Translations under genes and position numbers: made by a program
NCBI GenBank assembly: GCA_963932515.1
Contig: CAWVRT010000001.1
Span: 44,214 to 108,213 of the forward strand
Reading direction: 5' to 3'
Source of the DNA: an uncultured Chitinophagales bacterium
GTDB lineage: Bacteria; Bacteroidota; Bacteroidia; Chitinophagales; UBA8649
DNA length: 64,000 nucleotides
Notes under the pieces: model-generated
Told to the model about the DNA's origin: nothing
Seen by the model: only the letters and a program-made list of their open reading frames with translations
The model's database searches: none
Part shown: positions 6,075 through 63,835 of the stretch, one piece after another
Position numbering within the stretch: position 1 is the stretch's first letter
How the letters are laid out: each line of letters opens with the position of its first letter

Positions 6075-7094
6075 TTAAGGATAAGACCTTACTAATAAAT
6101 ATCTAAAAAGCATTTCTAGTAAGACTAAGGCTAAGGCAAAAAATGCAAATGGATAAAATTCTTCTGTTTTTCTAATAGTTTGAGACGAAATAATTTCTGT
6201 TTTTTCCAATTTATCTATTTCTTCATAAATTTCTTTTAACGACTTATTTCCTGTTGCTCTAAAATATTTCCCCCCAGTTGCGCTTGCTACTTCTTTCAAA
6301 AGTTTTTCATCTATTTCTCCTTTAGCGTAACCATATTGAAATTGTCCGTTGGTTTTCATACTAATCGGCATCAATGCTTGTCCTTCTGAACCTATTCCTA
6401 TTGTGTAAACTTTTATATTAAATTGATTGGCTGTTTCTGTTGCCAATATAGGATCTATTAAGCCTGCGTTGTTTACACCATCAGTCATTAAAACAATGAC
6501 TTTACTTTCGGATTTACTATCTTTTAGTCTATTTACGCCTGTAGCTATTCCCATACCAATGGCCGTTCCTTGACTTAAAAAACCGTATTTAACTTTTGCC
6601 AATTGGTCTTTTACAATCATATGATCTGTAGTAACAGGAACTTGCGTAAAACTTTCTCCTGAAAAAATAACCAGACCAAGTCTATCGTTTTGTCTAGCAT
6701 CTACAAATTCAGATGCTACCTTTTTAGCAGCTTCTAATCTATTTGGCTTAAAATCTTTGGCGAGCATTGAAGCTGAAACATCTAGTGATAAAACTATGTC
6801 TATCCCATAAGAAGTAATTTTTTCGTCACTGTCTGTAGTTTGAGGTCTTGCTATAGCAATAATTAATGCGACCATAGCTAATACTCTAAAAATCGTCAGA
6901 AGTATTTTCAATTTTCCTCTAAAAGAACTCTTCCCTTTAAAAGCTGCTAGTGAAGGCATTTTTATTGTAGCATATTCTTTTTTTCTATTGAAAAACCACC
7001 ATAAAATCATCGACAATACAATAAATGGAATTGCCCATAAATACTCTGGGTTAGCGAACTTAAACGAAAGAAATTTATTCATGAGTGGAGTCAT
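6075..7094 (-). CDS. batA: BatA-type von Willebrand factor A (VWA) membrane protein
   Basis: 339 aa. Two N-terminal TM helices, VWA MIDAS motif DIVLSLDVSASM, later LMTDGVNN, and a C-terminal TM helix. It is the last gene of the moxR-DUF58 operon. Confidence 0.8.
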   Translation of the reverse strand: MTPLMNKFLSFKFANPEYLWAIPFIVLSMILWWFFNRKKEYATIKMPSLAAFKGKSSFRGKLKILLTIFRVLAMVALIIAIARPQTTDSDEKITSYGIDIVLSLDVSASMLAKDFKPNRLEAAKKVASEFVDARQNDRLGLVIFSGESFTQVPVTTDHMIVKDQLAKVKYGFLSQGTAIGMGIATGVNRLKDSKSESKVIVLMTDGVNNAGLIDPILATETANQFNIKVYTIGIGSEGQALMPISMKTNGQFQYGYAKGEIDEKLLKEVASATGGKYFRATGNKSLKEIYEEIDKLEKTEIISSQTIRKTEEFYPFAFFALALVLLEMLFRYLLVRSYP

Positions 7095-8052
7095 TTTTTT
7101 CGTTAGTCGTTTGTTCTTCTTCTTTTGGTTTTGTATGAGCTACAAAGTCTTGGGCAATTTTCATCATTCGCATATTTTCATCTCCTAAGGGCTGAAATTT
7201 TGCAAACTTAGCCAAGTCACATTGCTGTAAAACTTCTTTTAGTTTTTTACTTAGCGTCTTGTTTTCTCCAAAAATTAGTAATTCTTCAACAATCTCGTCT
7301 GTAGTACTTTCCATGGCATTAAAGTCAAATCTTCCTTCCATATAAGATCTTAATACTTCAGAGATTTCTAAATAATACTCTTTAATATGACCACTTTGCC
7401 ACAATTTCTGTTGATCTATTTCCTTTAACTTATTAATAGCTTCTTGATGATAATCTAAAGTAGTTTTAGGTTTTATATATTTAGGTTTATCTCTGTTTTT
7501 ATACCTGTAACCCAAGTAGAAAAATAATGCAATTAAAGCAATCAGTCCTAACACATAAGGGAAATACTTTTTAACGACTTCTTTGAAAGGGTAAGGAATA
7601 CTCTTTGGTGCTTTAATTGGATTAAAAGCTTTTGACGTATCAACGGCAATCGTTTTTACAAAAACACTAACCGGGTCAAAACTTTTTAAAGTATCTATTG
7701 ATTCATTTTCATTTTGGACAATAACTGAAAATCCAGCTACTTGATAAGCTCCAGGATAATAAATACTTAAATCCCACTTTTTTACCAATTTATTCTCTAT
7801 AGTATCTATTGGATAATCTTCTATTATTTCTATTTTCCCGTTTCCTATTGTATCGGTAAAACTTGGAAAAAACACATTCGATTTACCAAAATTTTCGACA
7901 GCCATTTCTAATGAATATATATCTCCAATTAGGATAGAATCAGCATTTACGGAAACATTTAAGCTTTGTGAAAAAGCCATAAATGGAAACAATAACAATA
8001 GAAGAAAAACGCCTAATTCTTTGAATCGATATGTAGCATTAATATTGTTCAT
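7075..8052 (-). CDS. Bat-operon membrane protein (BatD-like N-terminal domain, TM helix, DUF4381-like C-terminal half)
   Basis: 325 aa. Signal peptide, central TM helix (YFPYVLGLIALIALFFYLGY), and a helical tail. Overlaps both neighbours, by 1 nt with DUF58 and 20 nt with batA, which suggests translational coupling. Confidence 0.6.
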   Translation of the reverse strand: MNNINATYRFKELGVFLLLLLFPFMAFSQSLNVSVNADSILIGDIYSLEMAVENFGKSNVFFPSFTDTIGNGKIEIIEDYPIDTIENKLVKKWDLSIYYPGAYQVAGFSVIVQNENESIDTLKSFDPVSVFVKTIAVDTSKAFNPIKAPKSIPYPFKEVVKKYFPYVLGLIALIALFFYLGYRYKNRDKPKYIKPKTTLDYHQEAINKLKEIDQQKLWQSGHIKEYYLEISEVLRSYMEGRFDFNAMESTTDEIVEELLIFGENKTLSKKLKEVLQQCDLAKFAKFQPLGDENMRMMKIAQDFVAHTKPKEEEQTTNEKNDSTHE

Positions 8053-8933
8053 TATCTTCTACTTCCTCTCATTTTAAATAGATTCATTAATGCTACCGTA
8101 TAATTGGTTTCTGTATCTATACTCAAAAAGTCTGCTCCTCTCTTGTGAAAAGTTTTTTTAGTCTCTTGTAGTTGATTTTCGAAATAATTCTTGTAATTTT
8201 CTCTAACAGATTTACTTGAAGTGTCTACCCAAAGGCTTTCTCCTGTTTCACTATCTACCATTTTTGCTAATCCAATATTGGCTAATTCATTTTCTCTTTT
8301 ATCGAAAAGGTGTAAACCAATTAAATCGTGTTTTTTCTTAGAGATAGTTAAAGCATTTTCATAGTCTTCTTTTTTGTCCATAAAATCTGACATTAAAAAA
8401 GCAATACTTCTACGCTTCATTATATTATTGAAATATTTCAAGGCAACGCCAATACTTGTTCCATTTTCAGAAGGTTTTACTTCTATCAATTCTCTTATTA
8501 TTCTTAAAATATGAGACTTCCCTTTTTTTGGTGGAATATATTTTTCTACTTTATTACTAAAGAAAATTACGCCTACTTTATCATTGTTTTGAATAGCTGA
8601 AAAAGATAAAACTGCTGCTATTTCTGTAATAATTTCATTTTTGAATTGATTTTGTGTGCCAAAAAAAGAAGATTTTGAAATGTCTATTAATAGCATCATG
8701 GTTATCTCTCTTTCCTCTTCAAAAACTTTGATAAATGGTTCACCATATCTAGCGGTTACATTCCAATCAATATTTCTTACATCATCGCCATAAGTATAGT
8801 TTCTTACTTCACTAAAAGACATTCCTCTACCTTTAAAAGCAGAATGATAAGATCCTGCAAATACTTGATTGCTCAAACCTTTCGTTTTGATTTCAATCTT
8901 ACGTACTTTTTTTATTAATTCTGAGGTTTCCAT
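8052..8933 (-). CDS. DUF58 family protein (MoxR-associated)
   Basis: 293 aa. Has the DVRNIDWNVTAR motif typical of DUF58 and sits directly downstream of the MoxR ATPase. Confidence 0.8.
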   Translation of the reverse strand: METSELIKKVRKIEIKTKGLSNQVFAGSYHSAFKGRGMSFSEVRNYTYGDDVRNIDWNVTARYGEPFIKVFEEEREITMMLLIDISKSSFFGTQNQFKNEIITEIAAVLSFSAIQNNDKVGVIFFSNKVEKYIPPKKGKSHILRIIRELIEVKPSENGTSIGVALKYFNNIMKRRSIAFLMSDFMDKKEDYENALTISKKKHDLIGLHLFDKRENELANIGLAKMVDSETGESLWVDTSSKSVRENYKNYFENQLQETKKTFHKRGADFLSIDTETNYTVALMNLFKMRGSRR

Positions 8934-9027
8934 ATTTTGATTTAGATATTAGATGATTAGATAATAGACATTAAAGGCCTTATGCAAAACCAATCTAATT
9001 TCTAATATCTATTTTCTTTTATCTGGA

Positions 9028-10026
9028 TTAAGGTATCTCTACTGTATTCAATAATTCGCTAATAATTTCTTCTGTAGTTACATTTTCTGCTTCTGCTTCA
9101 TAAGTTAAACCAATTCTATGACGCATTACATCATAAGCAACGGCTCTTACATCTTCAGGAATTACATAAGCTCTTTTTTTCAAGAATGCGTGAGATTTTG
9201 CAGCTAATGCTAAATTAATACTTGCTCTTGGCGAACCGCCATAACTTATTAAATGTTGCATTTTGTCAAAACCATTTTCTTTTGGATATCTAGTGGCAAA
9301 AACTAAATCTAAAATGTATTGCTCAATTTTTTCGTCCATATATACTTTACGAACCAATCCTCTAGCTTTTATTATTTGGCTTTTATCTACTACTTGATTT
9401 ATTTTTGGCTTTTCCATGTCCATGTTCATTCTAATTATCTGTCTTTCCTCTTCTTTTTTAGGATAGTCGATATTTACTTTTATCATGAAACGATCTATCT
9501 GTGCTTCTGGCAAAGGATAAGTTCCTTCTTGCTCAATAGGATTCTGTGTAGCCATTACCAAAAATGGTTCTTCTAGTTTATAAGTTTCTTTACCAATAGT
9601 TACTTGCTTTTCTTGCATGGCTTCTAAAAGTGCTGATTGTACTTTTGCCGGTGCTCTGTTTATCTCATCTGCTAATACAAAGTTTGAGAAAATTGGCCCT
9701 TTACGAACTTCAAAATCTCCTGCTTTCTGATTATAAATCATTGTACCTAAAATATCTGCAGGTAATAAATCTGGCGTAAACTGAATTCTATTAAAGTCAG
9801 CATTTATAGCAGAAGATAAAGACTTAATTGCCAATGTTTTTGCTAAACCTGGAACCCCTTCCAAAAGAATGTGCCCATTAGCTAATATGGCTAACATCAA
9901 TCTTTCCATCATATACTTTTGACCAGAAATTACTTTGCCGGTTTCCATATAAATTAAATCTAAGAAAGCACTTTCTCTTTCTATGATTTCACTTAATTCT
10001 TTAATATCTGTTGCAGTGTGTTCCAT
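9028..10026 (-). CDS. MoxR-family AAA+ ATPase
   Basis: 332 aa. Walker A GVPGLAKT, Walker B LADEINRA, and MoxR-like length and C-terminal lid. Confidence 0.9.
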   Translation of the reverse strand: MEHTATDIKELSEIIERESAFLDLIYMETGKVISGQKYMMERLMLAILANGHILLEGVPGLAKTLAIKSLSSAINADFNRIQFTPDLLPADILGTMIYNQKAGDFEVRKGPIFSNFVLADEINRAPAKVQSALLEAMQEKQVTIGKETYKLEEPFLVMATQNPIEQEGTYPLPEAQIDRFMIKVNIDYPKKEEERQIIRMNMDMEKPKINQVVDKSQIIKARGLVRKVYMDEKIEQYILDLVFATRYPKENGFDKMQHLISYGGSPRASINLALAAKSHAFLKKRAYVIPEDVRAVAYDVMRHRIGLTYEAEAENVTTEEIISELLNTVEIP

Positions 10027-16367: not shown

Positions 16368-18977
16368 TTAAAATTGAGCGCCTAAAACTACTTTTTCTTC
16401 AAAATGTTTTTTCTTTCCCTCTAAATCGAATAAATCTACTAAAACAATATAAATACCAATTTTAGCTTTTTCATTGTTATAATTTGTTCCGTCCCATTTC
16501 CAAAAACCTTCAGAACCTATGGTTTCGTTGAGTGCAATGTCTTTAATTTTCCTACCAACTATATCATAAATAGCAACATTGGCAACAAACCCAGGTTCAT
16601 CTATCGTATAGTTGATTAAGGTGAAATCTTTATCACCATCTTGATTTGGAGTAAAAACTTCTGGTGTTACAGAAATTAAATCTTCTTGAACAATTTCAGC
16701 AAAAGTTTGAGAGTTGACAGCCGTTGGTGTTCCAAAACCAAAACTTTTTGCTGCAGAAGCCCAATTGACATTACTTTGTGTTTCACTTTCGGTGCTTATT
16801 CTTTCTAAAGAAACTCCATTGTCCGAATCTAGCAATTCAAAATTCCAACGAGCAAAATAATGTAATTTGTCTAAGATAACACTATCGTTATAAACCAATC
16901 CAACAACTCCTTCATTGTCTGCATAACTTGGAATATTTAAGTCGAAAAGCCATGCTGGTTTAGTAACTATATAGTTTAAAAATACAGATTGGGTATCTTC
17001 CGTAAAAGTGAAATATGCGGCAGGTGGAATAATGAAATCCTCTGTAAATTTAGAAGAAAAATCACTGATGCTATCTTCAAAATCTATATCATATTCTATT
17101 ATATTAAAGCCTTTCAGATTTAACGCTTGATTACTTTTATTATAAATTTCAATATAATCATACGCACCAGAATACGGATTAAATAATATTTCATTGATTA
17201 GCAAATCACCTACTTCAGGGGATTTTACAAAGTAAACTTCTATACCATTTGCAAACATGGGTACACCTGAACAGTTTTGGATATTTGAAATACTCAAAGC
17301 ATAATAAATACTCGGAGAGGCAATTTCTTCCAGTGTTAAAAAATAAGAATTACCAATTTTTATCACCGAATTAATTTGATAAAAATTAACAAAATCGATT
17401 CCTGGTGAACTTAATTCGTAATTTGTAATATCATTTCCTCCTAAAACTTCTTGGTTAAAAGTTATTTGTATAGTCGTGTCATTTATAAATGTAGCTGATG
17501 TAATTTCTGGCGCAATTGACCCCAAAATAAGATCAACACTATTCATAGTTCCTGGCGAACCTCCAATTAAATCATTACTTGGTGTCCAGTTACCAGATTC
17601 AGAACAAGGGTAGCTAGCTGAAATTCTAGAAAGTGACCATCCGCCATCTACCTTATCATCGCCATTTGGTGCTTGCTGACCTGCAAACCAATTATCAAAA
17701 TAATGTAAAGAATCTAAAACTTCTCCATATTTATTATAAAGCGTTAGTTTATCTTCTGTTTTGTTTAAAGTAATAAAACTAGTTAGACCAAAAGTTTTTC
17801 CAAAACTATCATAAAAAGGTTTTGCGGTTGTTTTTCCAACGATTACATATTCATTCGGTAAAATCGTATCCGCATTAAAATAAGTTGTATCCGTAAAATC
17901 ACTTAAAAACCAACCTTCTGTAAAAAGCGTGTCATTTTGAAGATTTTTAAATTCAATAAACTCATAAGTTGGTAAACCAACTGCAGGTGTTTCGTCTGCT
18001 AAGATTTCGTTAAAAATAATGGACTCAAAAGTGTAGGCATTTTCCAATTCAAAAGAAATTACTGTGTCTAAGGTGTTTAAATTTAAATCTTCCAAGTTGT
18101 TTATACTTAAATCATAGCTTAAGCCCCCTATAAATTCAGTTGAAAAAGAAAGTAAAACAGAATTGTCTATATTATTGTTAGCAGCATTTATTGGCGTTCC
18201 TAGGCTATTGTTTCCTGAATAATTAGCTTCATTTTCTGCAATAACATTTTCCAATTCTTCCGAAAAATACACTTTTAAAGTATTCACATTTTCTATTTCT
18301 ACAGCCGTTACTTTTGGTGCGAAAATATCAGTAAAAACCTGCGCTGTTACATTTATGCTATCAAAAGTAAATTTATCCGATCTAGTAGAAGTATAATCAC
18401 ATAGAAACCCAAAATAATTACTTTCCATTACCGTATTATCAAAAACAGTTCCTTCACTTATGTAATTATTAAAAGCAACTGATGTATCTGAAAATAATTC
18501 AAAATTTCCGAATAAATCTCTACTAACTTTTATTTTCACTTTTGGCGTAGTAGCTACTGTTCCATCTATTCCATCTATTATTTTTGTAGATGTACTTCCG
18601 TTTTGTCTATACAAACTAATTTCGTCAGCTGTACTTCCTACTAAAACGTAGTATCCATCGAGGCTTCCTTTTAAATCACTTTGGTCAGAAACTATGTAAA
18701 CATACGCTCTATTACTACCTGATGGATTAAATTGAAGATCTACATAAAACTCCCAAAAACCATTAACTGCAGCATTACTAGCTGTAACAATTGCAGATTC
18801 ATCAGTCACTGCAGGCGCATTTAAGTGTAATTGATTGTTGGAGTTTATTTCAAAGTTGGCTATATCGCCAAGCCAAACAGGGTTTACTGTAAAATTTCCG
18901 TCAGAAAAACTTTCTTGAAATTGAGCATTTGAATAAAAACTGATAGCGGTCAATAGTAGTATAATTAGGTTTTTCAC
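16368..18977 (-). CDS. Large secreted protein with two lamin-tail-like (LTD) domains and a T9SS type-B-like C-terminal domain
   Basis: 869 aa with a GTG start. Signal peptide MKNLIILLLTAISFYSNAQ. Two LTD-type motifs (FNEILADETP..YEFIEFKN and INEILFNPYSG.YDYIEIYN). C-terminus has FTPNQDGDKDF...WKWDG...IGIYIV, resembling the FTPNGDG..WDG..GxY gliding-associated CTD. Confidence 0.7.
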   Translation of the reverse strand: MKNLIILLLTAISFYSNAQFQESFSDGNFTVNPVWLGDIANFEINSNNQLHLNAPAVTDESAIVTASNAAVNGFWEFYVDLQFNPSGSNRAYVYIVSDQSDLKGSLDGYYVLVGSTADEISLYRQNGSTSTKIIDGIDGTVATTPKVKIKVSRDLFGNFELFSDTSVAFNNYISEGTVFDNTVMESNYFGFLCDYTSTRSDKFTFDSINVTAQVFTDIFAPKVTAVEIENVNTLKVYFSEELENVIAENEANYSGNNSLGTPINAANNNIDNSVLLSFSTEFIGGLSYDLSINNLEDLNLNTLDTVISFELENAYTFESIIFNEILADETPAVGLPTYEFIEFKNLQNDTLFTEGWFLSDFTDTTYFNADTILPNEYVIVGKTTAKPFYDSFGKTFGLTSFITLNKTEDKLTLYNKYGEVLDSLHYFDNWFAGQQAPNGDDKVDGGWSLSRISASYPCSESGNWTPSNDLIGGSPGTMNSVDLILGSIAPEITSATFINDTTIQITFNQEVLGGNDITNYELSSPGIDFVNFYQINSVIKIGNSYFLTLEEIASPSIYYALSISNIQNCSGVPMFANGIEVYFVKSPEVGDLLINEILFNPYSGAYDYIEIYNKSNQALNLKGFNIIEYDIDFEDSISDFSSKFTEDFIIPPAAYFTFTEDTQSVFLNYIVTKPAWLFDLNIPSYADNEGVVGLVYNDSVILDKLHYFARWNFELLDSDNGVSLERISTESETQSNVNWASAAKSFGFGTPTAVNSQTFAEIVQEDLISVTPEVFTPNQDGDKDFTLINYTIDEPGFVANVAIYDIVGRKIKDIALNETIGSEGFWKWDGTNYNNEKAKIGIYIVLVDLFDLEGKKKHFEEKVVLGAQF

Positions 18978-20896: not shown

Positions 20897-21412
20897 TTAA
20901 ACAAAATCGTACGCCAAATGCTTCGTCGCTAATTCTTGTTTTTCTTCATTATAAACCAAACAAGACTCTATTGGGTTTCTGTATAAGTGTAATGAAAGAG
21001 AAGTTCCGTCATTGATGTTTTCAATCGTATGGAAACCAGTCGAATCTTCTTTAGTATAAGCTAATTCGTTTTCTTTTAAAATAATAAAGCCTTGTTTTTT
21101 CATTTCGTTAGTCTCTTTATTTAAAGCATACCCAACTTCTTTAAACTCTCCATCTAGAGCATAAACAAAACATTCATTACCATCATGGTTGTGAATAGCT
21201 GTTTTTTGACCTTTAGACCAGCACAGTAATATCAATTCGAATTCATCATTTCTAGTAATGCAGGTTCGTATATATTTTTTATCTGAAAAATGAATGTGCT
21301 CTTTAAAATCTTCTTTTGTTAAACCTAACTCTTGGATTTTTTTAGTATAAGCATCTTTGTCGCAAGAAGACATGCAATTTATTAATTCATCAATTTTATC
21401 TGTATTCCCCAT
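20897..21412 (-). CDS. Cysteine dioxygenase type I (cupin), eukaryote-like
   Basis: IHNHDGNECFVYALDG...GFHTIEN...SLSLHLY lines up with mammalian CDO IHDHTDSHCF...HRVEN...SLHLY. I start at the ATG at 21412 (MGNTDKID...) because a -7 box at 21448-21455 would place the transcription start inside the longer track ORF. Confidence 0.8.
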   Translation of the reverse strand: MGNTDKIDELINCMSSCDKDAYTKKIQELGLTKEDFKEHIHFSDKKYIRTCITRNDEFELILLCWSKGQKTAIHNHDGNECFVYALDGEFKEVGYALNKETNEMKKQGFIILKENELAYTKEDSTGFHTIENINDGTSLSLHLYRNPIESCLVYNEEKQELATKHLAYDFV

Positions 21413-21447
21413 GTTAGAATTCTCTATCTTTCTGCAAATGCGCATCG

Positions 21448-21455
21448 CAAAGCTA
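21448..21455 (-). promoter_or_regulatory. -7 promoter box TAGCTTTG for the cysteine dioxygenase gene
   Basis: Plus-strand caaagcta equals minus-strand TAGCTTTG, about 36 nt upstream of the ATG at 21412. Confidence 0.4.
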
Positions 21456-21851
21456 CGTAAAATATAGCTAAATACAAAATGATGTCAGATGAGGATATTG
21501 AAGATACATTTTTGATAATTATTTTTATCGATTTTACTACTTCAGCTAAATTTTTAGGTTACTATTTGTTTTTTAAAGTGTTTTTCAAGATTTTATTTCA
21601 CGCTAATCGTTGGTGTAAATAGGGCTTAGTGATACATTGTATTTAAAAGAAATATTAATTTTATATAAACATAAAATTATAATAAAAACAATATTTTGTG
21701 TTTAATTTTATTTTTTAGAATACCGGTAAATAAAGGAGTTTTTTTAAATTTATATGATTTATCTAGACACCCTTTTTGTTCAAACTATTATAATCTAAAA
21801 TTCATATATTATAAATAAATAAAAAAGAAAATCAGAATTACTTTCGTTTAA

Positions 21852-21874
21852 TACTTTTGAATATTGTATTTTTG
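21852..21874 (+). promoter_or_regulatory. Two tandem -7 promoter boxes (TACTTTTG, TATTTTTG) for the decarboxylase gene
   Basis: Exact TAnnTTTG matches at 21852-21859 and 21867-21874, 44-59 nt upstream of the ATG at 21918. Confidence 0.4.
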
Positions 21875-21917
21875 CGACCTATCTTACAATACGAAAATAA
21901 AAAAAATACCATCCTAT

Positions 21918-23273
21918 ATGCTTAGTGACCTAAAGTTATTTAATGATTTAACCTTGGCGCTACTAGCTGATGAAAAAGAGAACCCTGTTTCTAAAATGAT
22001 AGATCCTCAGGAAATGTACACCTCTTTAGATTTCGAATTAACTGACGAACCAAGTCTAGATGAAGATTTTAAAAAGAATTTGAAAAAGTTAATTTTAAGT
22101 ACGCCAAAAACGGCTTCTAAGAAATTTTTTAACCAACTTTTTGGTGGAAGAAGTAGTAAAGCATATTTAGGAGAATTATTAGCAGTGCTGTTAAATAATA
22201 GTATGTACACTTATAAAGTGGCAGGTCCTCAAGTTGGTATTGAAAAAACAATCATCAAAAAAGTAACAGAACTCATTAATTTTGGTGATGATGCTGACGG
22301 AACTTTCGCTCCAGGTGGTTCAATGTCTATTTTTATGGCAATGGTTATGGCTAGAGATGCTTTCAATTTGACTATTACAAAAGAAGGGGTATCTAGAAAA
22401 ATGACTTTATATACTTCTGAAGAATCTCATTATTCGGTTTCCAAAAATGCTTCATTTATTGGTGTAGGTAGAGACAATGTTCGTTATATCAAAGCAGATG
22501 ATCAAGGTCGTATGTTGGTTGTAGACTTGGAAGAGCAAATTAAAAAAGATATTGAAAAAGGATATGCTCCTTTTTATATAAACGCAACAGCTTCTACTAC
22601 CGTTTTAGGCGCTTTTGATCCAATTGACGAAATTAGTAAAATTGCCAAAAAATATAAAATTTGGTTGCATGTAGATGGCGCATTTGGTGGTTCAGTAATT
22701 TTTAGTAAAAAGCATAAGCATTTAATAAAAGGAGTAGAAGAAGCTGATTCTTTCAGTTTCAACCCACATAAATTATTAGGAACGCCATTGGCTACTTCTA
22801 TTATTATTGTAAAAAAGCAACAACATTTGTATGATTCTTTTGCGAATGAAGCGAGTTATTTGTATCAAACAGATAGCGATGAATTGAATCTGGGGAAAAT
22901 TTCTATACAATGTGGTAGAAGAAATGATGCTTTAAAATTCTGGACACTTTGGAAATCTGTAGGAACTTCTGGGTTAGAAAAAATAGTAGATAATCATTTT
23001 TATCTCGCTGACAAAACGAGAGACTATGTTTCTAACAATCCAGATTATACTTTATATAGCTTTAATGATTCTGTTTGTGTTTGTTTTAACTATAAAGGAA
23101 TTCCTGCAGAGAAAATCTGTAATGAATTATATGAAAATAACGAAATGATGGTTGGTTACGGCAAGTTTAAAGAAGATGAATTTATTAGAATGGTTTTTGT
23201 AAATCCTGAAAGCACGGATGCTGAATTAGACAATTTCTTTAAGATATTAGAGAATTTTGCTGATAAAATGTAA
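21918..23273 (+). CDS. Group II PLP-dependent decarboxylase, cysteine sulfinic acid decarboxylase (CSAD/GADL1)-like
   Basis: FFNQLFGG, LNNSMYTYK, HVDGAFGGS and SFNPHKLLG (PLP lysine) parallel human CSAD FFNQLFSG, LNTSQYTYE, HVDAAWGGS and NPHKLL. The track start at 21864 is a TTG inside the promoter boxes, so I use the ATG at 21918. Confidence 0.8.
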   Translation: MLSDLKLFNDLTLALLADEKENPVSKMIDPQEMYTSLDFELTDEPSLDEDFKKNLKKLILSTPKTASKKFFNQLFGGRSSKAYLGELLAVLLNNSMYTYKVAGPQVGIEKTIIKKVTELINFGDDADGTFAPGGSMSIFMAMVMARDAFNLTITKEGVSRKMTLYTSEESHYSVSKNASFIGVGRDNVRYIKADDQGRMLVVDLEEQIKKDIEKGYAPFYINATASTTVLGAFDPIDEISKIAKKYKIWLHVDGAFGGSVIFSKKHKHLIKGVEEADSFSFNPHKLLGTPLATSIIIVKKQQHLYDSFANEASYLYQTDSDELNLGKISIQCGRRNDALKFWTLWKSVGTSGLEKIVDNHFYLADKTRDYVSNNPDYTLYSFNDSVCVCFNYKGIPAEKICNELYENNEMMVGYGKFKEDEFIRMVFVNPESTDAELDNFFKILENFADKM

Positions 23274-27826: not shown

Positions 27827-28834
27827 TTAATTATACATTTCTAAAGAGCTTTTTAATCTATTTTTAATTTCTGTTTTTAAACTTTCGGGTGAAATGACTT
27901 TTACCGTTTCACCAAAACTTAAAATACTCATAATTAATTCAACCGTAAGCCCAACATTAAGTTTTACAACCAACTCATCAGCTGTTTCAGAAATAATTTC
28001 TTGCGTTTCATGCAATTCTTGTGTTAAAACATACGCTTTTTGAATTTTATTGAACGAAAGAATTACTTCTTCACTTTTCCCTTCAAAAGTGGTTATGCCA
28101 AAAGCATGTTTAAAATAATCTTTGGTAGAAAAAGATGGGTGATTTTTAAAAGCTTTAGATGATTTTTCGAAATGCGTAATTCTATCCAATCCAAAAGTGT
28201 TAATATACCCATATTTATCATTCATGCCAATTAAATACCAACGATTTCTATATTCTTTTAATAAATAAGGATGAACTGTATGTGTTTTAGTTTCGTTGCT
28301 ATTAAATTTTTGATATTCCACATAAATACACTCATTTTCTTTAATATGCGTAAGTAATGCTCCTATTAAATTGGATCCTTTAAAATTGGGTACTTTTTCG
28401 AACTGAATAGTATCTTCTATCTCGTCTTCTGTTAAAATAGTACTAACATTTATGGCATTAAATATTTTATCTACGGTGGCTTCAAAATCACTAAACATTT
28501 TAATTCCCTTAAATTGTTGCAAAACTGTTGCAGCAAACTCTAAAGAATCTAAATCTTTTTCGCTCAAAGGAATTTCAGTAATTGTATAGTTTTCATCGCT
28601 ATAATAATAACCACCTTCTCTTTTACTCCATTTTATTGGCGCTAAAAAGCCTAACAATTCATCTTGTTTCATGGCTTTAATATCTTTTTGAATAGTAGAC
28701 TCCGAAAAAGTTTTACCCAATTTCTCTTCCATCTCTTCTATTAAATCATCCATGCTAGGATATGTTTTTCGCTTATTTCTAAGCATTTTGTCTATTATTC
28801 TATATCGAATAAAAGCTTCTTTATTTGCAGCCAT
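27827..28834 (-). CDS. HTH + WYL-domain transcriptional regulator
   Basis: 335 aa. N-terminal winged-HTH-like segment (AFIRYRIIDKMLRNKRK.YPSMDDLIEEM), central HPYLLKEYRNRWYLIG (WYL signature), and a C-terminal WCX-like extension. Confidence 0.8.
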   Translation of the reverse strand: MAANKEAFIRYRIIDKMLRNKRKTYPSMDDLIEEMEEKLGKTFSESTIQKDIKAMKQDELLGFLAPIKWSKREGGYYYSDENYTITEIPLSEKDLDSLEFAATVLQQFKGIKMFSDFEATVDKIFNAINVSTILTEDEIEDTIQFEKVPNFKGSNLIGALLTHIKENECIYVEYQKFNSNETKTHTVHPYLLKEYRNRWYLIGMNDKYGYINTFGLDRITHFEKSSKAFKNHPSFSTKDYFKHAFGITTFEGKSEEVILSFNKIQKAYVLTQELHETQEIISETADELVVKLNVGLTVELIMSILSFGETVKVISPESLKTEIKNRLKSSLEMYN

Positions 28835-31937: not shown

Positions 31938-32729
31938 TTAAACCTTTAAGAAATCTTCTAAACTTACCCAAACAGTAATTCCTTCAGTATTTATTACTTT
32001 GTAAAATCCATCTACTTGGTCCAATACTTCCAACTTAGTCCCTTCATGAAAAAGGATTTGATTGCCCGCATTTTTACTTGGGGCATCTTTCCCGTAAGAA
32101 GAGGCGTTAATTAAAACAATTTCTTCTATTTTAAAGATCTTTTCAGATTGAATTCCTGCAATTAGAATACTTAAAAGACTTACTATTCCAAATACAATGA
32201 ATTTAGAAAAGGCCGCTTTTTTAAACAATAAGTTTCTAGCAAATAAATAAAAACCAAAAGCTAAAACAGTAAACCAAGCAAAGCTAATAGCTATCCAAGC
32301 CCATATATTTGCAGAGAATAAATACTTTAATTTTTTCCACCAACTTGTAAATATCAAATCGGGTAAAACTTCTAGTTTATCTTCAATTTCAGTATTCGCT
32401 AATCGTAAATTATGAAAAGCGCTTTTATTTTGTGGGTTTATTTTTAAGGTCTTTTCATAATACAAAATACTCTTTCCTAATGCACCAGTTTTGTAGTAAG
32501 TATTTGCTAAATTGTAATATAAATTTTCTGACTTCGCTCCTTTCTCTACCACACTTTTATAAGATAATAAAGCTTCTGAAAACTGCTCTTTTTCATATAA
32601 TTCATTTGCTTTTTCGAAAACAGACTGATTACCCTCTTCTATAAGTAGACTACTTTCTGCAAAACAATAGTTAGCCAAAATAGAAAACAAAACGATATGT
32701 AAACTTTTAAACAATTTCACTTTCAACAT
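31938..32729 (-). CDS. TPR + SH3-like membrane protein (BatE-like)
   Basis: 263 aa. Signal peptide, TPR repeats (AELYEKEQFSEALLSYK..., YYNLANTYYKTGALGKSILYYEKTLKINP), TM helices, and a C-terminal SH3b-like GFYKVINTEGITVWV. Overlaps batD by 23 nt. Confidence 0.65.
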   Translation of the reverse strand: MLKVKLFKSLHIVLFSILANYCFAESSLLIEEGNQSVFEKANELYEKEQFSEALLSYKSVVEKGAKSENLYYNLANTYYKTGALGKSILYYEKTLKINPQNKSAFHNLRLANTEIEDKLEVLPDLIFTSWWKKLKYLFSANIWAWIAISFAWFTVLAFGFYLFARNLLFKKAAFSKFIVFGIVSLLSILIAGIQSEKIFKIEEIVLINASSYGKDAPSKNAGNQILFHEGTKLEVLDQVDGFYKVINTEGITVWVSLEDFLKV

Positions 32730-34542
32730 GTATGATTATTTCTTTTGCTTCATTAAAATCTTTCTGCATTTCTGCTTCTCCCATTGGTGAATAAACAGCC
32801 ATTTCACTTTTATTGATTAAGTTGATATAACGCGTTGATGTTTGTTCAGAAACTGTATTTACCAATAGTTTTTCTTGAATATTTTCTTTACTTAAATCTT
32901 CTGGCAGCATGTTTAATTTCAAAGAAACATAATCCCAAAGCGATCGAACAATTTCATTATAAAATGCTTTTTTATCATTTGCTTTTAAATATTCATTTGC
33001 TTTTTTCAGCTTAGACATTGCCAATTTATTTGCCTTTTTTCTATTGATAGCAACCAAATTTGGAGTGTAATTGTCTAATTTATACTTAGCCAATAATAAT
33101 AAAAATGCAAAGCCAATAGAACTAGACCAAAGCGACCAAAATGTTTTGCTGCCTATAAATTTATCTTCATAAAAAGCAATATCGTTTATACTTGTAATAT
33201 TCTTAATGTCAGCATCTAAAATAGTTTCGTCATTTGGATCTGGTATTTTTTCTTCAACATAATCAGCACTTGGTTCTACGTTTATTGTAAAGCCATCGGC
33301 ATAAATTGTATGGTATTTTTTACTACTTAAATCAAAATATGAAAATGGAATAGAATCAATATTGAAAATCCCTGGTTTGGTAGGAATCATTAAATAGTCA
33401 TACTTTTTAGAACCATTTATATAAGTAGATTTTTTAGAAATATATTCTTTTTCTTGCGGATCGTAAATTTCAAATTCTTCTGGCAAAACTAATTGCGGGG
33501 CATTAATCATCATGATATTTCCCGTTCCTGTAATTTTACTTTTTAAAGTAATTGCTTTACCTGTTTCGGTATTTACACTATCAACACTAGCAGAAAATTT
33601 GAAACGCCCTACTGCTCCAGTAAAATTTTCAGGAACATTTTCTGAAGGTAAAGGGTTTACTTTTATTTTAAGACCATTACTCTGAAATGGATATTCCTTA
33701 TTTTCGTAAGCGCCAAAAAATTGATCCCAAATAGAATTACTTTGAGATTTTTTTCTTAATTGAACCAAAGTAGCCAACTTTATTGGGCTCAAATTAAAAT
33801 CTCCTGCTCTCTGTGGAAACAAAGCATATTTATTAATCATCATGGTGTTAAACCAGACTCCGTCTACTTCTTCTTTTTCCCACTTATTTGCTTGTAACTT
33901 AAAATCATTCACCCAAAAACCTTTAAATTCTGGTAATTCTGTTACCTGAGTTTGAAAAGTTTGAACTCCTTGGTATAGTTTTAAATATAAGGTAACTTGC
34001 TCGCCAACATAAGGATTCTGCTTGTCGGTATACATTTTTACGTATAAGTTTTTAGCAATTTGCTCTTTCCAGTCTCCATTATCACTTGGTACTGTTTGTT
34101 GTCGCTGTTGTTGCCTGAGAGTGTTAGCATTGTTATGTTGCTGCTGAGCTTTATTTTTTTTCTGCCCTTTTTGCACCTTAACTTTAAAGCTTTTTGTTTT
34201 TAAAGTTTTTTTATCTACAGTTACACTGGCCACAGGAATATTAAATTCGCCTTCTTTACTTGCTTGTAAATAATAAGTATAAGATTTAGAACTAGTTGTT
34301 TTTCCGTTTACCCACGAATAATTACTCGATTGGCTAGGACCACCAACAATTTGGAAACCTGGATAAGTTTGCGGCATTTTAAAATTATTCCCCTTTCCAT
34401 TTTCCAATACAAAAGTAATGGCATAAGTTTCCCCTGTATAAGCAACCGTTTGCCCTTTGGCATAAAATTTTGCTTGAGAAAACACACTCACAAAACTTAG
34501 TAGAAAACTTAAAAGGATAATATTTTTAATCTGACATTTCAT
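32707..34542 (-). CDS. batD: BatD-family protein
   Basis: 611 aa. Signal peptide; repeated Ig-like modules with the ...GGPSQSSNYSWVNGKTTSSKSYTYYL..KEGEFNIP pattern; a Q-rich linker; and a C-terminal TM helix plus helical tail. Confidence 0.7.
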   Translation of the reverse strand: MKCQIKNIILLSFLLSFVSVFSQAKFYAKGQTVAYTGETYAITFVLENGKGNNFKMPQTYPGFQIVGGPSQSSNYSWVNGKTTSSKSYTYYLQASKEGEFNIPVASVTVDKKTLKTKSFKVKVQKGQKKNKAQQQHNNANTLRQQQRQQTVPSDNGDWKEQIAKNLYVKMYTDKQNPYVGEQVTLYLKLYQGVQTFQTQVTELPEFKGFWVNDFKLQANKWEKEEVDGVWFNTMMINKYALFPQRAGDFNLSPIKLATLVQLRKKSQSNSIWDQFFGAYENKEYPFQSNGLKIKVNPLPSENVPENFTGAVGRFKFSASVDSVNTETGKAITLKSKITGTGNIMMINAPQLVLPEEFEIYDPQEKEYISKKSTYINGSKKYDYLMIPTKPGIFNIDSIPFSYFDLSSKKYHTIYADGFTINVEPSADYVEEKIPDPNDETILDADIKNITSINDIAFYEDKFIGSKTFWSLWSSSIGFAFLLLLAKYKLDNYTPNLVAINRKKANKLAMSKLKKANEYLKANDKKAFYNEIVRSLWDYVSLKLNMLPEDLSKENIQEKLLVNTVSEQTSTRYINLINKSEMAVYSPMGEAEMQKDFNEAKEIIIHVESEIV

Positions 34543-60440: not shown

Positions 60441-63400
60441 CTACATATTCCTTCTATACTGCCCACCAACTTTAAAAAGCGAATTCGTAATCTGCCCCAA
60501 AGAACATACTTTACTTGCTTCCATCATTTGCTCAAAGATATTTCCGTTTTCAATAGCACATTTTTGTAATAAAATTATTTGCTCCGCTGCTTTTGAACCA
60601 CTTCTTGCGTGAAGATCTTGTAGCATTTCTATTTGATACTGCTTTTCTTCTTCCGTAGAACGAATAACTTCTGCAGGAATCACCGTAGGTGAACCTTTAG
60701 AACTCAAGAATGTATTTACCCCAATAATTGGAAATTCTCCTGTATGTTTCAACGTTTCATAATGCAAACTTTCTTCTTGAATTTTCCCTCTTTGGTACAT
60801 GGTTTCCATTGCACCTAAAACACCACCTCTTTCTGTAATTCTATCAAATTCTGTCAGCACAGCTTCTTCCACTAAATCAGTTAACTCTTCTATAATAAAT
60901 GCGCCTTGAATTGGATTTTCGTTTTTTGCTAAACCTAATTCTTTATTAATAATCAACTGAATTGCCATTGCTCTTCTTACAGATTCTTCTGTAGGCGTTG
61001 TGATGGCTTCATCATAAGCATTTGTATGTAAAGAATTACAGTTGTCATTCAAAGCATAAAGCGCTTGAAGTGTTGTTCTGATATCATTAAAATCAATTTC
61101 TTGAGCATGTAATGAACGTCCAGAAGTTTGAATATGGTATTTTAATTTCTGTGCGCTTTCAGAAGCGCCATATTTTTCTTTCATTGCTTTTGCCCAAATT
61201 TTACGAGCAACTCTACCAATTACAGAATACTCTGGATCTATACCGTTTGAAAAGAAAAAGGATAAGTTTGGACCAAATTTATCTAAATCCATTCCTCTAC
61301 TTAAATAGTATTCTACATAAGTAAAGCCATTAGATAATGTAAACGCTAATTGCGTAATTGGATTTGCACCAGCTTCAGCTATATGATAACCAGAAATAGA
61401 AACAGAATAAAAATTTCTAACTGCTTTTTCAATAAAGTATTCTTGAACATCTCCCATTAAACGTAAGGCAAATTCTGTAGAAAAAATACAAGTATTTTGT
61501 GCTTGATCCTCTTTCAAAATATCTGCTTGAACAGTCCCTCTAACTTGCGTTAAAGTTTTTGTTTTGATTTCAGTATAAACAGCTGCAGGTAAAACCATGT
61601 CACCAGTTATACCTAAAAGCATCAAACCTAACCCATCATTCCCTTCTGGTAATTCTCCTTGGTATTTTGGCTGTGCTTGACCTAAGTTTTTAAAGTAAGC
61701 AGCTGTTTTAGCTTGCGTTTCCTTTTCTAAACCGTGTTCTTTAATGTATAACTCACAGTTTTGATCTATGGCAGCATTCATAAAGAAACCTAACAACATA
61801 GGTGCTGGACCGTTAATTGTCATAGAAACAGAAGTCATTGCACTTGATAAATAAAAACCTGAATACAATTTCTTAGCATCATCCAAACAACAAATACTTA
61901 CACCAGCATTACCAATTTTACCATAAATATCAGGTCTGATAGCTGGGTCGTTTCCGTAAAGTGTAACCGAATCAAAAGCCGTAGAAAGTCTTTTCGCTGG
62001 CATTCCTTTACTTACATAATGAAAACGTTTATTGGTTCTTTCTGGTCCTCCTTCTCCTGCAAACATTCTTGAAGGATCTTCTCCTTGTCTTTTAAATGGA
62101 AACAATCCAGCTGCAAAAGGATATTCTCCTGGTACATTTTCTTGTAAGTTCCATCTTAAAATATCTGACCAAGATTCATATCTAGGCATAGAAATTTTAG
62201 GGATTTTTAATTGAGAAAGGGAAGTTGCATGCGTATCTATATTAATTACTTTATCTCTTACTTTAAACGAAAATACGTCTTCTTTGTATTTTGCTTTCTT
62301 TGCTTCCCAACCTTCTATTATTAGCCAGTTTTTAGGGTCTAAATTTAATTTTACTTGTTCGAAATGTGCTTCTAACTCTTGCTTTAAAGTAGTATTTGAA
62401 CCTTCTAAAGATTCTATTGTTTTATTTATTCCAAACAGTTTTGAAGCTACTTTACATTGCTTATCTACCCAAGTATCGTAAGACCTATTACTTTCTGCAA
62501 TTTCAGAAAGATATCTTGTTCTTTTTGGTGGAATAATAAAAATCTTCTCAGAAATCTCATTACTTCCTTCAAAAGAAGAACCTAAATTCGCCTCTGTTTT
62601 TTCTGCTATTTTATTCATCATAGCAGCATACAAAGTATTCATTCCTGGGTCATTAAACTGAGAAGCAATTGTTCCAAAAACAGGAATTTCACTATCGTCA
62701 GTATGCCACAAGCTATGATTCCTTTTATACTGCTTTTTTACATCTCTCAAGGCATCTAATGCACCCCTTTTATCAAATTTATTTAAGGCAATAACATCTG
62801 CAAAATCCAACATGTCAATTTTTTCTAACTGAGTAGCTGCTCCGTATTCTGGAGTCATTACATAAAGTGCGACATCAGAAAATTCTGTTATTTCTGTATC
62901 TGATTGACCTATTCCAGAAGTCTCTAGAATAATTAAATCAAAACCTGCGACTTTCAAAACACTCAAAGCATCATCTACAAAAGAAGATAAAGCTAAATTT
63001 GCTTGACGAGTAGCCATAGAACGCATATAAACACGGTCGTTATTAATAGCATTCATTCTTATTCTATCGCCTAAAAGTGCGCCACCAGTTTTTCTTTTGG
63101 AAGGATCTACTGACACTATCGCAATATCTTTTTCTGGAAAATCAATTAGAAATCTTCTAACCAACTCATCTACCAAAGAAGATTTCCCTGCGCCACCAGT
63201 TCCTGTAATTCCTAATACTGGAATTTTGATACTTTTAGCTTCTTTTCTAATAACATCTAATTCTGATTTAAACTTATCAGAAAAATTTTCTGCCGCAGAA
63301 ATAACTCTTGAAAGACTTGGTTTATTTTTTAGATTGATATTTTTAAACTCTTCCTTTAAATTTTCTCCTGTTGGGTAATCACTTCTTTCAACCAAGTCAT

Positions 63401-63809
63401 TTATCATTCCTTGAAGTCCCATTGCTCTACCATCATCTGGTGAGTATATTTTAGTGATTCCGTAAGCGTGTAGTTCTGCAATTTCATCTGGAAGAATTAC
63501 GCCACCGCCACCAGCAAATATTTTGATGTGTTCGGCATTGTTTTCTTTCAATAAATCATACATATATTTTAAATACTCAACGTGCCCACCTTGGTAAGAC
63601 GTCATAGCAATCGCTTGCGCATCTTCTTGAATAGCTGTATTTACAACTTCTTGTACGGATCTATCGTGCCCTAAGTGTATTACTTCTACACCAGTAGCTT
63701 GAATAATTCTACGCATGATATTTATAGCAGCGTCATGCCCATCAAAAAGAGATGCAGCAGTGACTATTCTAATCTTGTTTACTGGTTTATATGGCTTCGC
63801 TTCGGTCAT
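60441..63809 (-). CDS. icmF: Fused isobutyryl-CoA mutase (IcmF): B12-binding domain + MeaB-like GTPase + mutase TIM-barrel domain
   Basis: N-terminal [10 protein letters not shown] (DxHxxG B12 motif); central P-loop [13 protein letters not shown] with MeaB-like NKFD; C-terminal ~550-aa acyl-CoA mutase substrate domain. The track start at 63830 is a TTG inside the -7 box, so I use the ATG at 63809 (MTEAKPYKP...). Confidence 0.85.
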
Positions 63810-63827
63810 TGTAGTATAATTTGACTG

Positions 63828-63835
63828 CAAATTTA
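63828..63835 (-). promoter_or_regulatory. -7 promoter box TAAATTTG for icmF
   Basis: Plus-strand caaattta equals minus-strand TAAATTTG, 18 nt upstream of the ATG at 63809. Confidence 0.45.

Follow-up and report, generated by a model that had tools for sequence, protein, structure and literature searches.

A divergently encoded cysteine dioxygenase and CSAD-type decarboxylase in an uncultured Chitinophagales bacterium: a probable cysteine-to-hypotaurine gene pair

The gene pair and its predicted enzymes

A stretch of 64,000 nucleotides from an uncultured Chitinophagales bacterium (assembly GCA_963932515.1, contig CAWVRT010000001.1, positions 44,214 to 108,213), called the window in the following, was analyzed with respect to two divergent genes at 20897-23273. 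One encodes a cupin of the cysteine dioxygenase (CDO) family and the other a group II decarboxylase dependent on pyridoxal 5'-phosphate (PLP) and resembling cysteine sulfinate decarboxylase (CSAD); together, the two enzymes would lead from cysteine to hypotaurine. Both open reading frames (ORFs) were found where a first-pass annotation, made from the sequence alone, had placed them. The two genes and the region between them are:

20897..21412, minus strand: CDO gene, 171 aa from Met12 (Pfam CDO_I, public gene call)
21918..23273, plus strand: CSAD-type group II PLP decarboxylase gene, 451 aa (Pfam Pyridoxal_deC, public gene call)
21413..21917, no strand assigned: divergent intergenic region, 505 bp, 22 % GC

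Longer ORFs can be read for both genes, namely 20897..21445 on the minus strand (182 aa, from an upstream ATG at 21445) for the CDO and 21864..23273 on the plus strand (469 aa, from TTG) for the decarboxylase. The likely true starts, as judged from the sequences, are Met12 (21412) and the ATG at 21918. Met12 was preferred because close homologues begin at this residue, because residues 1-13 had a pLDDT below 50 in the AlphaFold model, and because a putative promoter box, TAGCTTTG, is separated from the ATG at 21445 by only 3 nt, so that a transcript would begin at or after that ATG. The Tara Oceans metagenome scaffold ERZ2783026 scaffold_510 contains an identical stretch, and its public gene call begins the cupin at Met12 (21412) and the decarboxylase at the ATG 21918, which leaves exactly the 505-bp spacer. 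The decarboxylase is also identical to a protein (P0041) that was called as 451 aa.

The cupin matched Pfam CDO_I (PF05995) with 76.1 bits (cut-off 23, E = 3e-21). Its best solved relatives identified by HMMER were human, rat and mouse CDO1 (E = 3e-22 to 1e-18); the human protein gave E = 2.9e-22, compared with E = 3.1e-7 for the CDO of B. subtilis. The bit scores were 82 for mammalian CDO1, 18 for ergothioneine dioxygenase and 14 for 3-mercaptopropionate dioxygenase (3MDO), and BLASTP detected 34 % identity with zebrafish CDO1 over 128 aa. An AlphaFold (AF2) model calculated from 30 homologues had a pLDDT of 88.9. When the predicted fold was compared by Foldseek, the best matches were all mammalian CDO1 (TM 0.81, 2.3 Å), followed by weaker matches to 3MDO, mercaptosuccinate dioxygenase and ergothioneine dioxygenase.

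HMMER and BLASTP also paired the motifs of the cupin with those of mammalian CDO1 (IHNH with IHDH, NECF with SHCF, GFHTIEN with GLHRVEN, SLHLY with SLHLY), so that all of the motifs quoted in the first-pass annotation, which had been aligned by eye, proved to be in register. In a scan of one genome per species with a CDO alignment, a relative was encoded in at least 447 genomes; the counts for 80 related genomes or loci given below refer to the top 80. The residues of the active site are:

21266..21274, minus strand: Tyr58-x-Arg60 (rat Tyr58 and Arg60), invariant in 80/80 loci
21185..21193, minus strand: His85-x-His87, two of the three iron ligands (rat His86 and His88), invariant in alignment A1 and in 80/80 loci
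21170..21172, minus strand: Cys92 codon (rat Cys93 position, cross-link partner), in register, codon verified
21029-21031, minus strand: His139, third iron ligand (rat His140), invariant in 80/80 relatives
20981..20995, minus strand: Ser151-x-His153-x-Tyr155 in SLHLY (rat Ser153-His155-Tyr157 triad), with Tyr as cross-link partner

The codons of Cys92, Tyr155 (20981-20983, minus strand), His85, His87, His139, Arg60, Ser151 and His153 were verified in the DNA. Tyr58, Arg60, His85, His87, His139, His153, Tyr155 and Cys162 were invariant across the 80 related genomes. Within the triad, His and Tyr were present in all 80 loci, while the first position was occupied by Ser in 70 and by Thr in 10. 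Arg60 binds the carboxylate of cysteine and marks the Arg-type CDOs, while 3-mercaptopropionate dioxygenases are of the Gln-type (PMC8050391). Sequence comparison and the modelled fold support the assignment of the cupin as an iron-dependent Arg-type cysteine dioxygenase.

Both partners of the Cys-Tyr cross-link known from animal CDO were said to be kept in the cupin, and Cys92 and Tyr155 indeed align with rat Cys93 and Tyr157. Cys was found at the rat Cys93 position in 79 of the 80 related genomes, always as C-W; the window CDO has C-F like the mammalian enzymes and is the only one with C-F instead of C-W. The statement that bacterial CDOs generally carry Gly at this position agrees with the literature for most of them, some Gram-negative pathogens keeping the Cys (Bordetella preprint), but in the present clade Cys is the norm. 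The small lineage to which the window belongs was mixed, with Cys in the window and in P0002 and Gly in P0003, P0005, P0006, P0007 and L001. The Gly of these closest relatives indicates that the cross-link is not essential in the lineage of the window, and it is evidently dispensable in close relatives, as judged from their sequences. According to the title of PDB entry 4wvz, the G95C variant of the P. aeruginosa thiol dioxygenase forms an artificial cross-link, suggesting that a Cys at this site can suffice. By this analogy and from the aligned residues, formation of a Cys92-Tyr155 thioether in the window CDO is plausible.

The decarboxylase matched Pfam Pyridoxal_deC (PF00282) with E = 5.5e-82. 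Among solved relatives, the highest scores were obtained with mouse CSAD (284 bits, E = 2e-83) and human CSAD (278 bits), closely followed by glutamate decarboxylase (GAD) 67 (GAD67, 277 bits), GADL1 (273.5 bits) and GAD65 (267.5 bits). Diaminobutyrate-type decarboxylases reached at most 195 bits, and tryptophan, tyrosine and aromatic decarboxylases at most 165 bits. Matches to more specific models were all below threshold: 135.5 bits for PanP (TIGR03799, cut-off 606.1), 184.6 bits for L-2,4-diaminobutyrate decarboxylase (NF052646, cut-off 900), and scores far below threshold for the NCBIfam models of MfnA, histidine decarboxylase and GAD. The residues relevant for selectivity and PLP binding are:

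22140..22208, plus strand: selectivity triad Phe75 ... Ser95-x-Tyr97 (FFNQLF ... NNSMYTY), 19 residues between Phe and Ser
22767..22772, plus strand: His284-Lys285 of NPHK (PLP Schiff-base lysine), invariant in alignments A2 and A3, present in 74/75 loci

The FFNQLF, N-S-M-Y-T-Y and NPHK motifs named in the first-pass annotation are thus all present, and the codons of Phe75, Ser95, Tyr97 and the NPHK lysine were verified. HMMER paired FFNQLF/NNSMYTY of the window with FFNQLF/NTSQYTY of CSAD and FFNQLS/NTNMFTY of GAD67, i.e., the triad is Phe/Ser/Tyr as in CSAD, while GAD67 has Ser/Asn/Phe. The Phe/Ser/Tyr triad was found in 72 of 75 genomic copies linked to a CDO and in 77 of 80 metagenomic copies. 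His171 (stacking), Asp253 (pyridine nitrogen) and Lys285 of the PLP site were invariant in the alignments. A three-residue motif of the Phe/Ser/Tyr type reportedly defines CSAD selectivity, according to the 2013 work of Agnello and colleagues, and the CSAD and GAD67 rows of our alignment agree with this.

A rough neighbour-joining tree of 134 representatives grouped the Bacteroidota decarboxylases into one tight clade to which the animal sequences do not belong, and Phe-Ser-Tyr was the commonest triad over many bacterial and eukaryotic branches. With near-equal scores to CSAD, GAD67, GADL1 and GAD65 and a separate bacterial clade, orthology with animal CSAD is not indicated, and the enzyme is therefore best named CSAD-type or CSAD-like. 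A grouping with glutamate, tyrosine or diaminobutyrate decarboxylases had been considered as an argument against the CSAD assignment. The scores excluded the tyrosine and diaminobutyrate enzymes, but GAD is not separable from CSAD by overall similarity of the sequences; only the motif and the gene context separate the two. Both support a group II enzyme selective for cysteine sulfinate.

Linkage of the two genes across genomes

The top 80 genomes of the scan were mostly marine Flavobacteriales, Saprospiraceae, Crocinitomicaceae and Cytophagales, together with a few metagenome-assembled genomes (MAGs) of Gammaproteobacteria. A decarboxylase 54-68 % identical to that of the window adjoined the CDO gene in 75 of these 80 loci. 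The linked loci displayed two arrangements: 40 were divergent as in the window, and 35 formed a co-directional operon with CDO preceding the decarboxylase. Linkage was also analyzed from the other side by searching marine metagenomes with the decarboxylase, and in 53 of the 72 contigs that were informative the neighbour was a CDO. In one lineage, the two enzymes are naturally fused in a single ORF (P0161, 634 aa), the CDO_I domain at the N-terminus being followed by the decarboxylase at the C-terminus; the reading frame of the fusion is uninterrupted on two independent contigs (L086:6001-7905 and L087:362-2266, both on the plus strand). Adjacency in two gene orders together with a fusion is strong evidence that the two enzymes catalyze consecutive steps of one pathway.

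The fusion is flanked by genes for OsmC, MsrA, MsrB and SelO, neighbours that hint at an oxidative-stress context.

The decarboxylase was also found apart from CDO. It is located between the type IX secretion system (T9SS) plug gene and apaG, beside nqrA-F and without an adjacent CDO, in Aquaticitalea lipolytica, Ulvibacter antarcticus and Cochleicola gelatinilyticus (L082, L084 and L085), while in Psychroserpens a CDO is inserted between the T9SS plug gene and the decarboxylase. The unlinked copies keep the selectivity motif, suggesting that the decarboxylase is useful without a neighbouring CDO.

A PutP-like sodium:solute symporter gene adjoins the pair in many loci, for example at L052:1180-2694 (minus strand), with equivalents in 74 related loci. 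It scored 348 bits against the PutP equivalog, below the cut-off of 515. The gene was adjacent in 70 of 136 loci containing CDO, compared with 4 of 31 loci with the decarboxylase only. The transporter may import cysteine or cystine, or it may move hypotaurine or taurine.

The decarboxylases of the co-directional type were 76-85 % identical across Flavobacteriales, Cytophagales, Saprospiraceae and Gammaproteobacteria MAGs (e.g., L018, L035, L036, L059, L060 and L070), which is as close as two species of Tenacibaculum, and the GC content of the co-directional module matched the flanks in each host. These values suggest that the co-directional cassette either spread horizontally long ago or was placed in some MAGs by mis-binning of contigs. 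In the window, the pair is more diverged, the CDO being at most 43 % and the decarboxylase at most 68 % identical to any species-level genome representative; by these identities, it is a deep and sparsely sampled lineage.

The intergenic region and other genes of the window

The first-pass annotation had described a 505-bp AT-rich control region with -7 boxes for both directions. The length, the low GC content and the boxes themselves were confirmed, but the Bacteroidetes-type box motif TAnnTTTG was not enriched, with 97 occurrences in the window against 115 expected from shuffled sequences. Since this is not above chance, the boxes listed here are plausible promoters only:

21448..21455, minus strand: candidate Bacteroidetes-type -7 box TAGCTTTG (TAnnTTTG) for the CDO gene, 3 nt upstream of the ATG at 21445
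21852..21874, plus strand: two candidate -7 boxes, TACTTTTG (21852-21859) and TATTTTTG (21867-21874), 44-66 nt upstream of the decarboxylase ATG

The spacer had no Rfam match at E <= 1, no copy elsewhere in the window and no similarity in 167 loci. Only weak, AT-rich imperfect inverted repeats were detected, and scans of the spacer for sigma-70 promoters and terminators were at chance level. The spacer is not conserved, and the nearest relative (L001) has only about 50 bp at this place. A regulatory RNA or a mobile element in the spacer was considered and rejected, as there was no Rfam match, no repeat copy and only chance-level scans. The sequence gives no evidence for more than two putative promoters and AT-rich filler.

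The genes flanking the pair are housekeeping genes, namely asd, udk, lspA, a DksA/TraR zinc finger gene and ileS. The GC content is about 0.31 throughout the window, the two genes included, and the coding sequence of the module (0.31) equals the background.

Other genes of the window were recorded in addition. BatA-D/MoxR-type 'aerotolerance' genes (AAA_3 MoxR, DUF58, VWA/BatA, TPR and BatD) are located at 6075-10026 and 31938-34542, both on the minus strand, and such a split in two places is typical of Bacteroidota. A gene at 60441-63830 (minus strand) encodes a 1129-aa fusion of B12-binding, MeaB-like GTPase and methylmalonyl-CoA-mutase domains with an IcmF-like architecture. An 869-aa protein with lamin-tail domains and a CHU_C type IX secretion signal is encoded at 16368-18977 (minus strand), and a putative regulator with WYL/WCX domains is encoded downstream of ileS at 27827-28834 (minus strand).

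Predicted pathway, alternative explanations and known systems

The proposed route starts with the CDO, which would oxidize free L-cysteine to cysteine sulfinate by addition of O2 to the thiol. The PLP decarboxylase would then remove the alpha-carboxylate of cysteine sulfinate to yield hypotaurine. Oxidation of hypotaurine to taurine may follow, without an enzyme or with one that is encoded elsewhere. The substrates and products of both window enzymes are given here as we infer them. The route could provide a compatible solute or an antioxidant, or it could dispose of excess cysteine. The conversion of cysteine via cysteine sulfinate to hypotaurine, as predicted in the first-pass annotation, is probable and in our opinion the best reading of the pair, in view of the active-site residues in register, the fold match, the linkage detected from both sides and the fusion.

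Several observations weigh against it. Neither protein reached a cut-off of the NCBIfam equivalog models. No enzyme oxidizing hypotaurine and no transporter for the pathway was evident within the 64-kb window, which also had no homologue of the PutP-like symporter. Gly replaces Cys92 in most of the closest relatives of the CDO (5 of 7), and 19 of the 72 orthologous decarboxylases in marine contigs had no adjacent CDO although their motif was identical. Aspartate is a further substrate of family members such as the insect aspartate and cysteine sulfinate decarboxylases (ADC/CSADC) and GADL1, and cysteate is a further substrate of CSADs. Among the accessible papers, no biochemistry was found for the window protein or for members from Bacteroidota.

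The activity on aspartate leads to an alternative in which the decarboxylase would act mainly, or to an equal extent, as a PLP-dependent aspartate 1-decarboxylase and produce beta-alanine for pantothenate and CoA, and the CDO would be a cysteine detoxifier that is merely located nearby or supplies a secondary substrate. Members of the family accept aspartate, and JGI labels some of the homologues 'sulfinoalanine decarboxylase/aspartate 1-decarboxylase'. Orthologues about 62 % identical, with the same FFNQLF/NNSMYTY, occur in the nqr/T9SS-plug/ApaG neighbourhood of the three Flavobacteriaceae without an adjacent CDO, and 19 of the 72 marine contigs likewise have no CDO beside the decarboxylase. 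However, about 74-94 % of the copies are paired with a CDO in two gene orders and one fusion, which is hard to explain for an enzyme of pantothenate synthesis, and the PanP model was missed by a wide distance (135 vs 606 bits). Moreover, the unlinked decarboxylases nest among CDO-linked lineages of the divergent type, suggesting that the CDO was probably lost or relocated secondarily. We therefore regard an aspartate decarboxylase as unlikely here. Bacteroidota make cysteate for sulfonolipids, and the decarboxylase might act on L-cysteate, derived from oxidized cysteine sulfinate or from the sulfonolipid pool, and thus form taurine directly. This would account for the retention of the decarboxylase in genomes without an adjacent CDO and is in line with CSADs that are reported to take both cysteine sulfinate and cysteate. 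Such a role appears very improbable, as neither the window nor the conserved neighbourhoods have a gene for cysteate formation linked to the pair, and the conserved partner is a CDO, the product of which is the sulfinate.

The cupin could also be a thiol dioxygenase for 3-mercaptopropionate, cysteamine, mercaptosuccinate or ergothioneine, in which case the pathway product would be different. The CDO fold is common to 3MDO, mercaptosuccinate and ergothioneine dioxygenases, as reflected in the weaker Foldseek matches, and the protein reaches no NCBIfam equivalog. On the other hand, the invariant Arg60 is that of the cysteine-specific Arg-type while 3MDOs are of the Gln-type, mammalian CDO1 scored 82 bits against 18 for ergothioneine dioxygenase and 14 for 3MDO, and the partner decarboxylase needs the sulfinate of an alpha-amino acid. 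Another thiol substrate therefore has a very low probability. Finally, the two genes could be neighbours by chance without any functional relation. The unrelated housekeeping genes on both sides (asd, udk, lspA and ileS) and the unusually long spacer of 505 bp would fit with this, but adjacency in 75/80 and 53/72 independent loci from several orders, in two arrangements, and the fusion effectively refute it.

The route from cysteine to hypotaurine is not new in kind. The enzyme characterized in the 2013 work of Agnello and colleagues is reportedly the CSAD of Synechococcus sp. PCC 7335. A passage in one later paper credits the conversion of cysteine via cysteine sulfinate (CSA) and hypotaurine to taurine in 'marine cyanobacteria and marine flavobacteria' to Agnello et al. 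(2013) (PMC12585060), and a passage in another credits the same work with a CSAD gene in an operon with CDO in 'a few marine microbes' (PMC11195143). The two enzymes and the logic are the same as in the window, including the three-residue motif in a GAD-like decarboxylase beside a CDO; the difference is that the genes form an operon there, whereas those of the window are divergent. JGI annotates homologues as 'sulfinoalanine decarboxylase' and 'cysteine dioxygenase'. As papers citing the 2013 work already place the pathway in marine bacteria, the window pair is a correct rediscovery and adds a new, rather divergent example to a bacterial gene pair that was known before. The claim that the pathway is rare in bacteria was not upheld, since at least 447 species-level genomes encode a relative and the pathway is common in marine Bacteroidota.

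Compared with mammalian CDO1 (PDB 2b5h, 2ic1 and 6bgf), the window CDO shares the 3-His site, Tyr58/Arg60, the Ser-His-Tyr triad, Cys93, Tyr157, Cys164 and the C-F dipeptide (rat numbering). It differs in having only about 34 % identity and a shorter C-terminus (171 vs 200 aa), and the rat Pro159 position is Asn in the window and Lys in the clade consensus. B. subtilis CdoA/YubC (PDB 3eqe and 4qm8) and the Cys93-bearing CDOs BP2871 and BP3011 of Bordetella pertussis are likewise Arg-type dioxygenases for the thiol of free cysteine, but the B. subtilis CDO is much more distant from the window CDO than mammalian CDO1 (3e-7 vs 3e-22). The hosts of the characterized bacterial CDOs are described as converting the sulfinate to pyruvate and sulfite, with no partner decarboxylase (Bordetella preprint). 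The window decarboxylase shares the group II architecture of fold-type I and the PLP site with mammalian CSAD, GADL1, GAD65 and GAD67 (PDB 6zek, 2jis, 6enz, 3vp6 and 2okk), with about 40 % identity over about 370 residues, and the Phe/Ser/Tyr triad with CSAD. Unlike the animal enzymes CSAD, GADL1 and GAD, which have an N-terminal extension of 40-70 residues, the Bacteroidota decarboxylases do not carry an extension.

The term eukaryote-like, used in the first-pass annotation, fits only relative to the few characterized bacterial CDOs. The decarboxylase belongs to its own bacterial clade and is about equidistant from animal CSAD, GADL1 and GAD. A homologue search with a segment of human CDO1 returned only vertebrates and was too narrow for a broad CDO tree. 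The GC content of the module (0.31) equals the background and thus shows no trace of a recent transfer. A recent transfer from a eukaryote was rejected for the decarboxylase, as it also branches in its own bacterial clade.

A wider model is possible, though we hold it only tentatively. According to this model, the CDO/CSAD-type pair, often together with the PutP-like Na+ symporter, would be a widespread cassette of marine Bacteroidota that was partly spread horizontally; the lineage of the window would be exchanging the cross-link Cys for Gly, and in the quarter of lineages that lost the neighbouring CDO, the decarboxylase would have a second job independent of CDO, either the formation of beta-alanine or that of taurine with cysteate as the substrate. 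If this were true, abundant heterotrophic marine Bacteroidota would not only consume but also produce hypotaurine and taurine in the ocean, and the lineage of the window would be a natural experiment on the change from the cross-link Cys to Gly.

The basic picture from 2013 remains unchanged, and the value of the present results is incremental. They show how widely the module occurs in marine Bacteroidota and add the natural fusion, the frequent PutP-like symporter and the Cys/Gly polymorphism. The CDOs of this clade, which keep Cys and Tyr and include a sub-lineage with both Cys and Gly, would be convenient material for the function of the cross-link. Animals and algae are usually regarded as the producers of taurine and hypotaurine, which are major currencies in the marine cycling of organic sulfur and nitrogen. 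With a common two-gene route in marine Bacteroidota, bacteria would have to be added to these sources, and the compact enzymes of the route could also be of use for making taurine in microbes.

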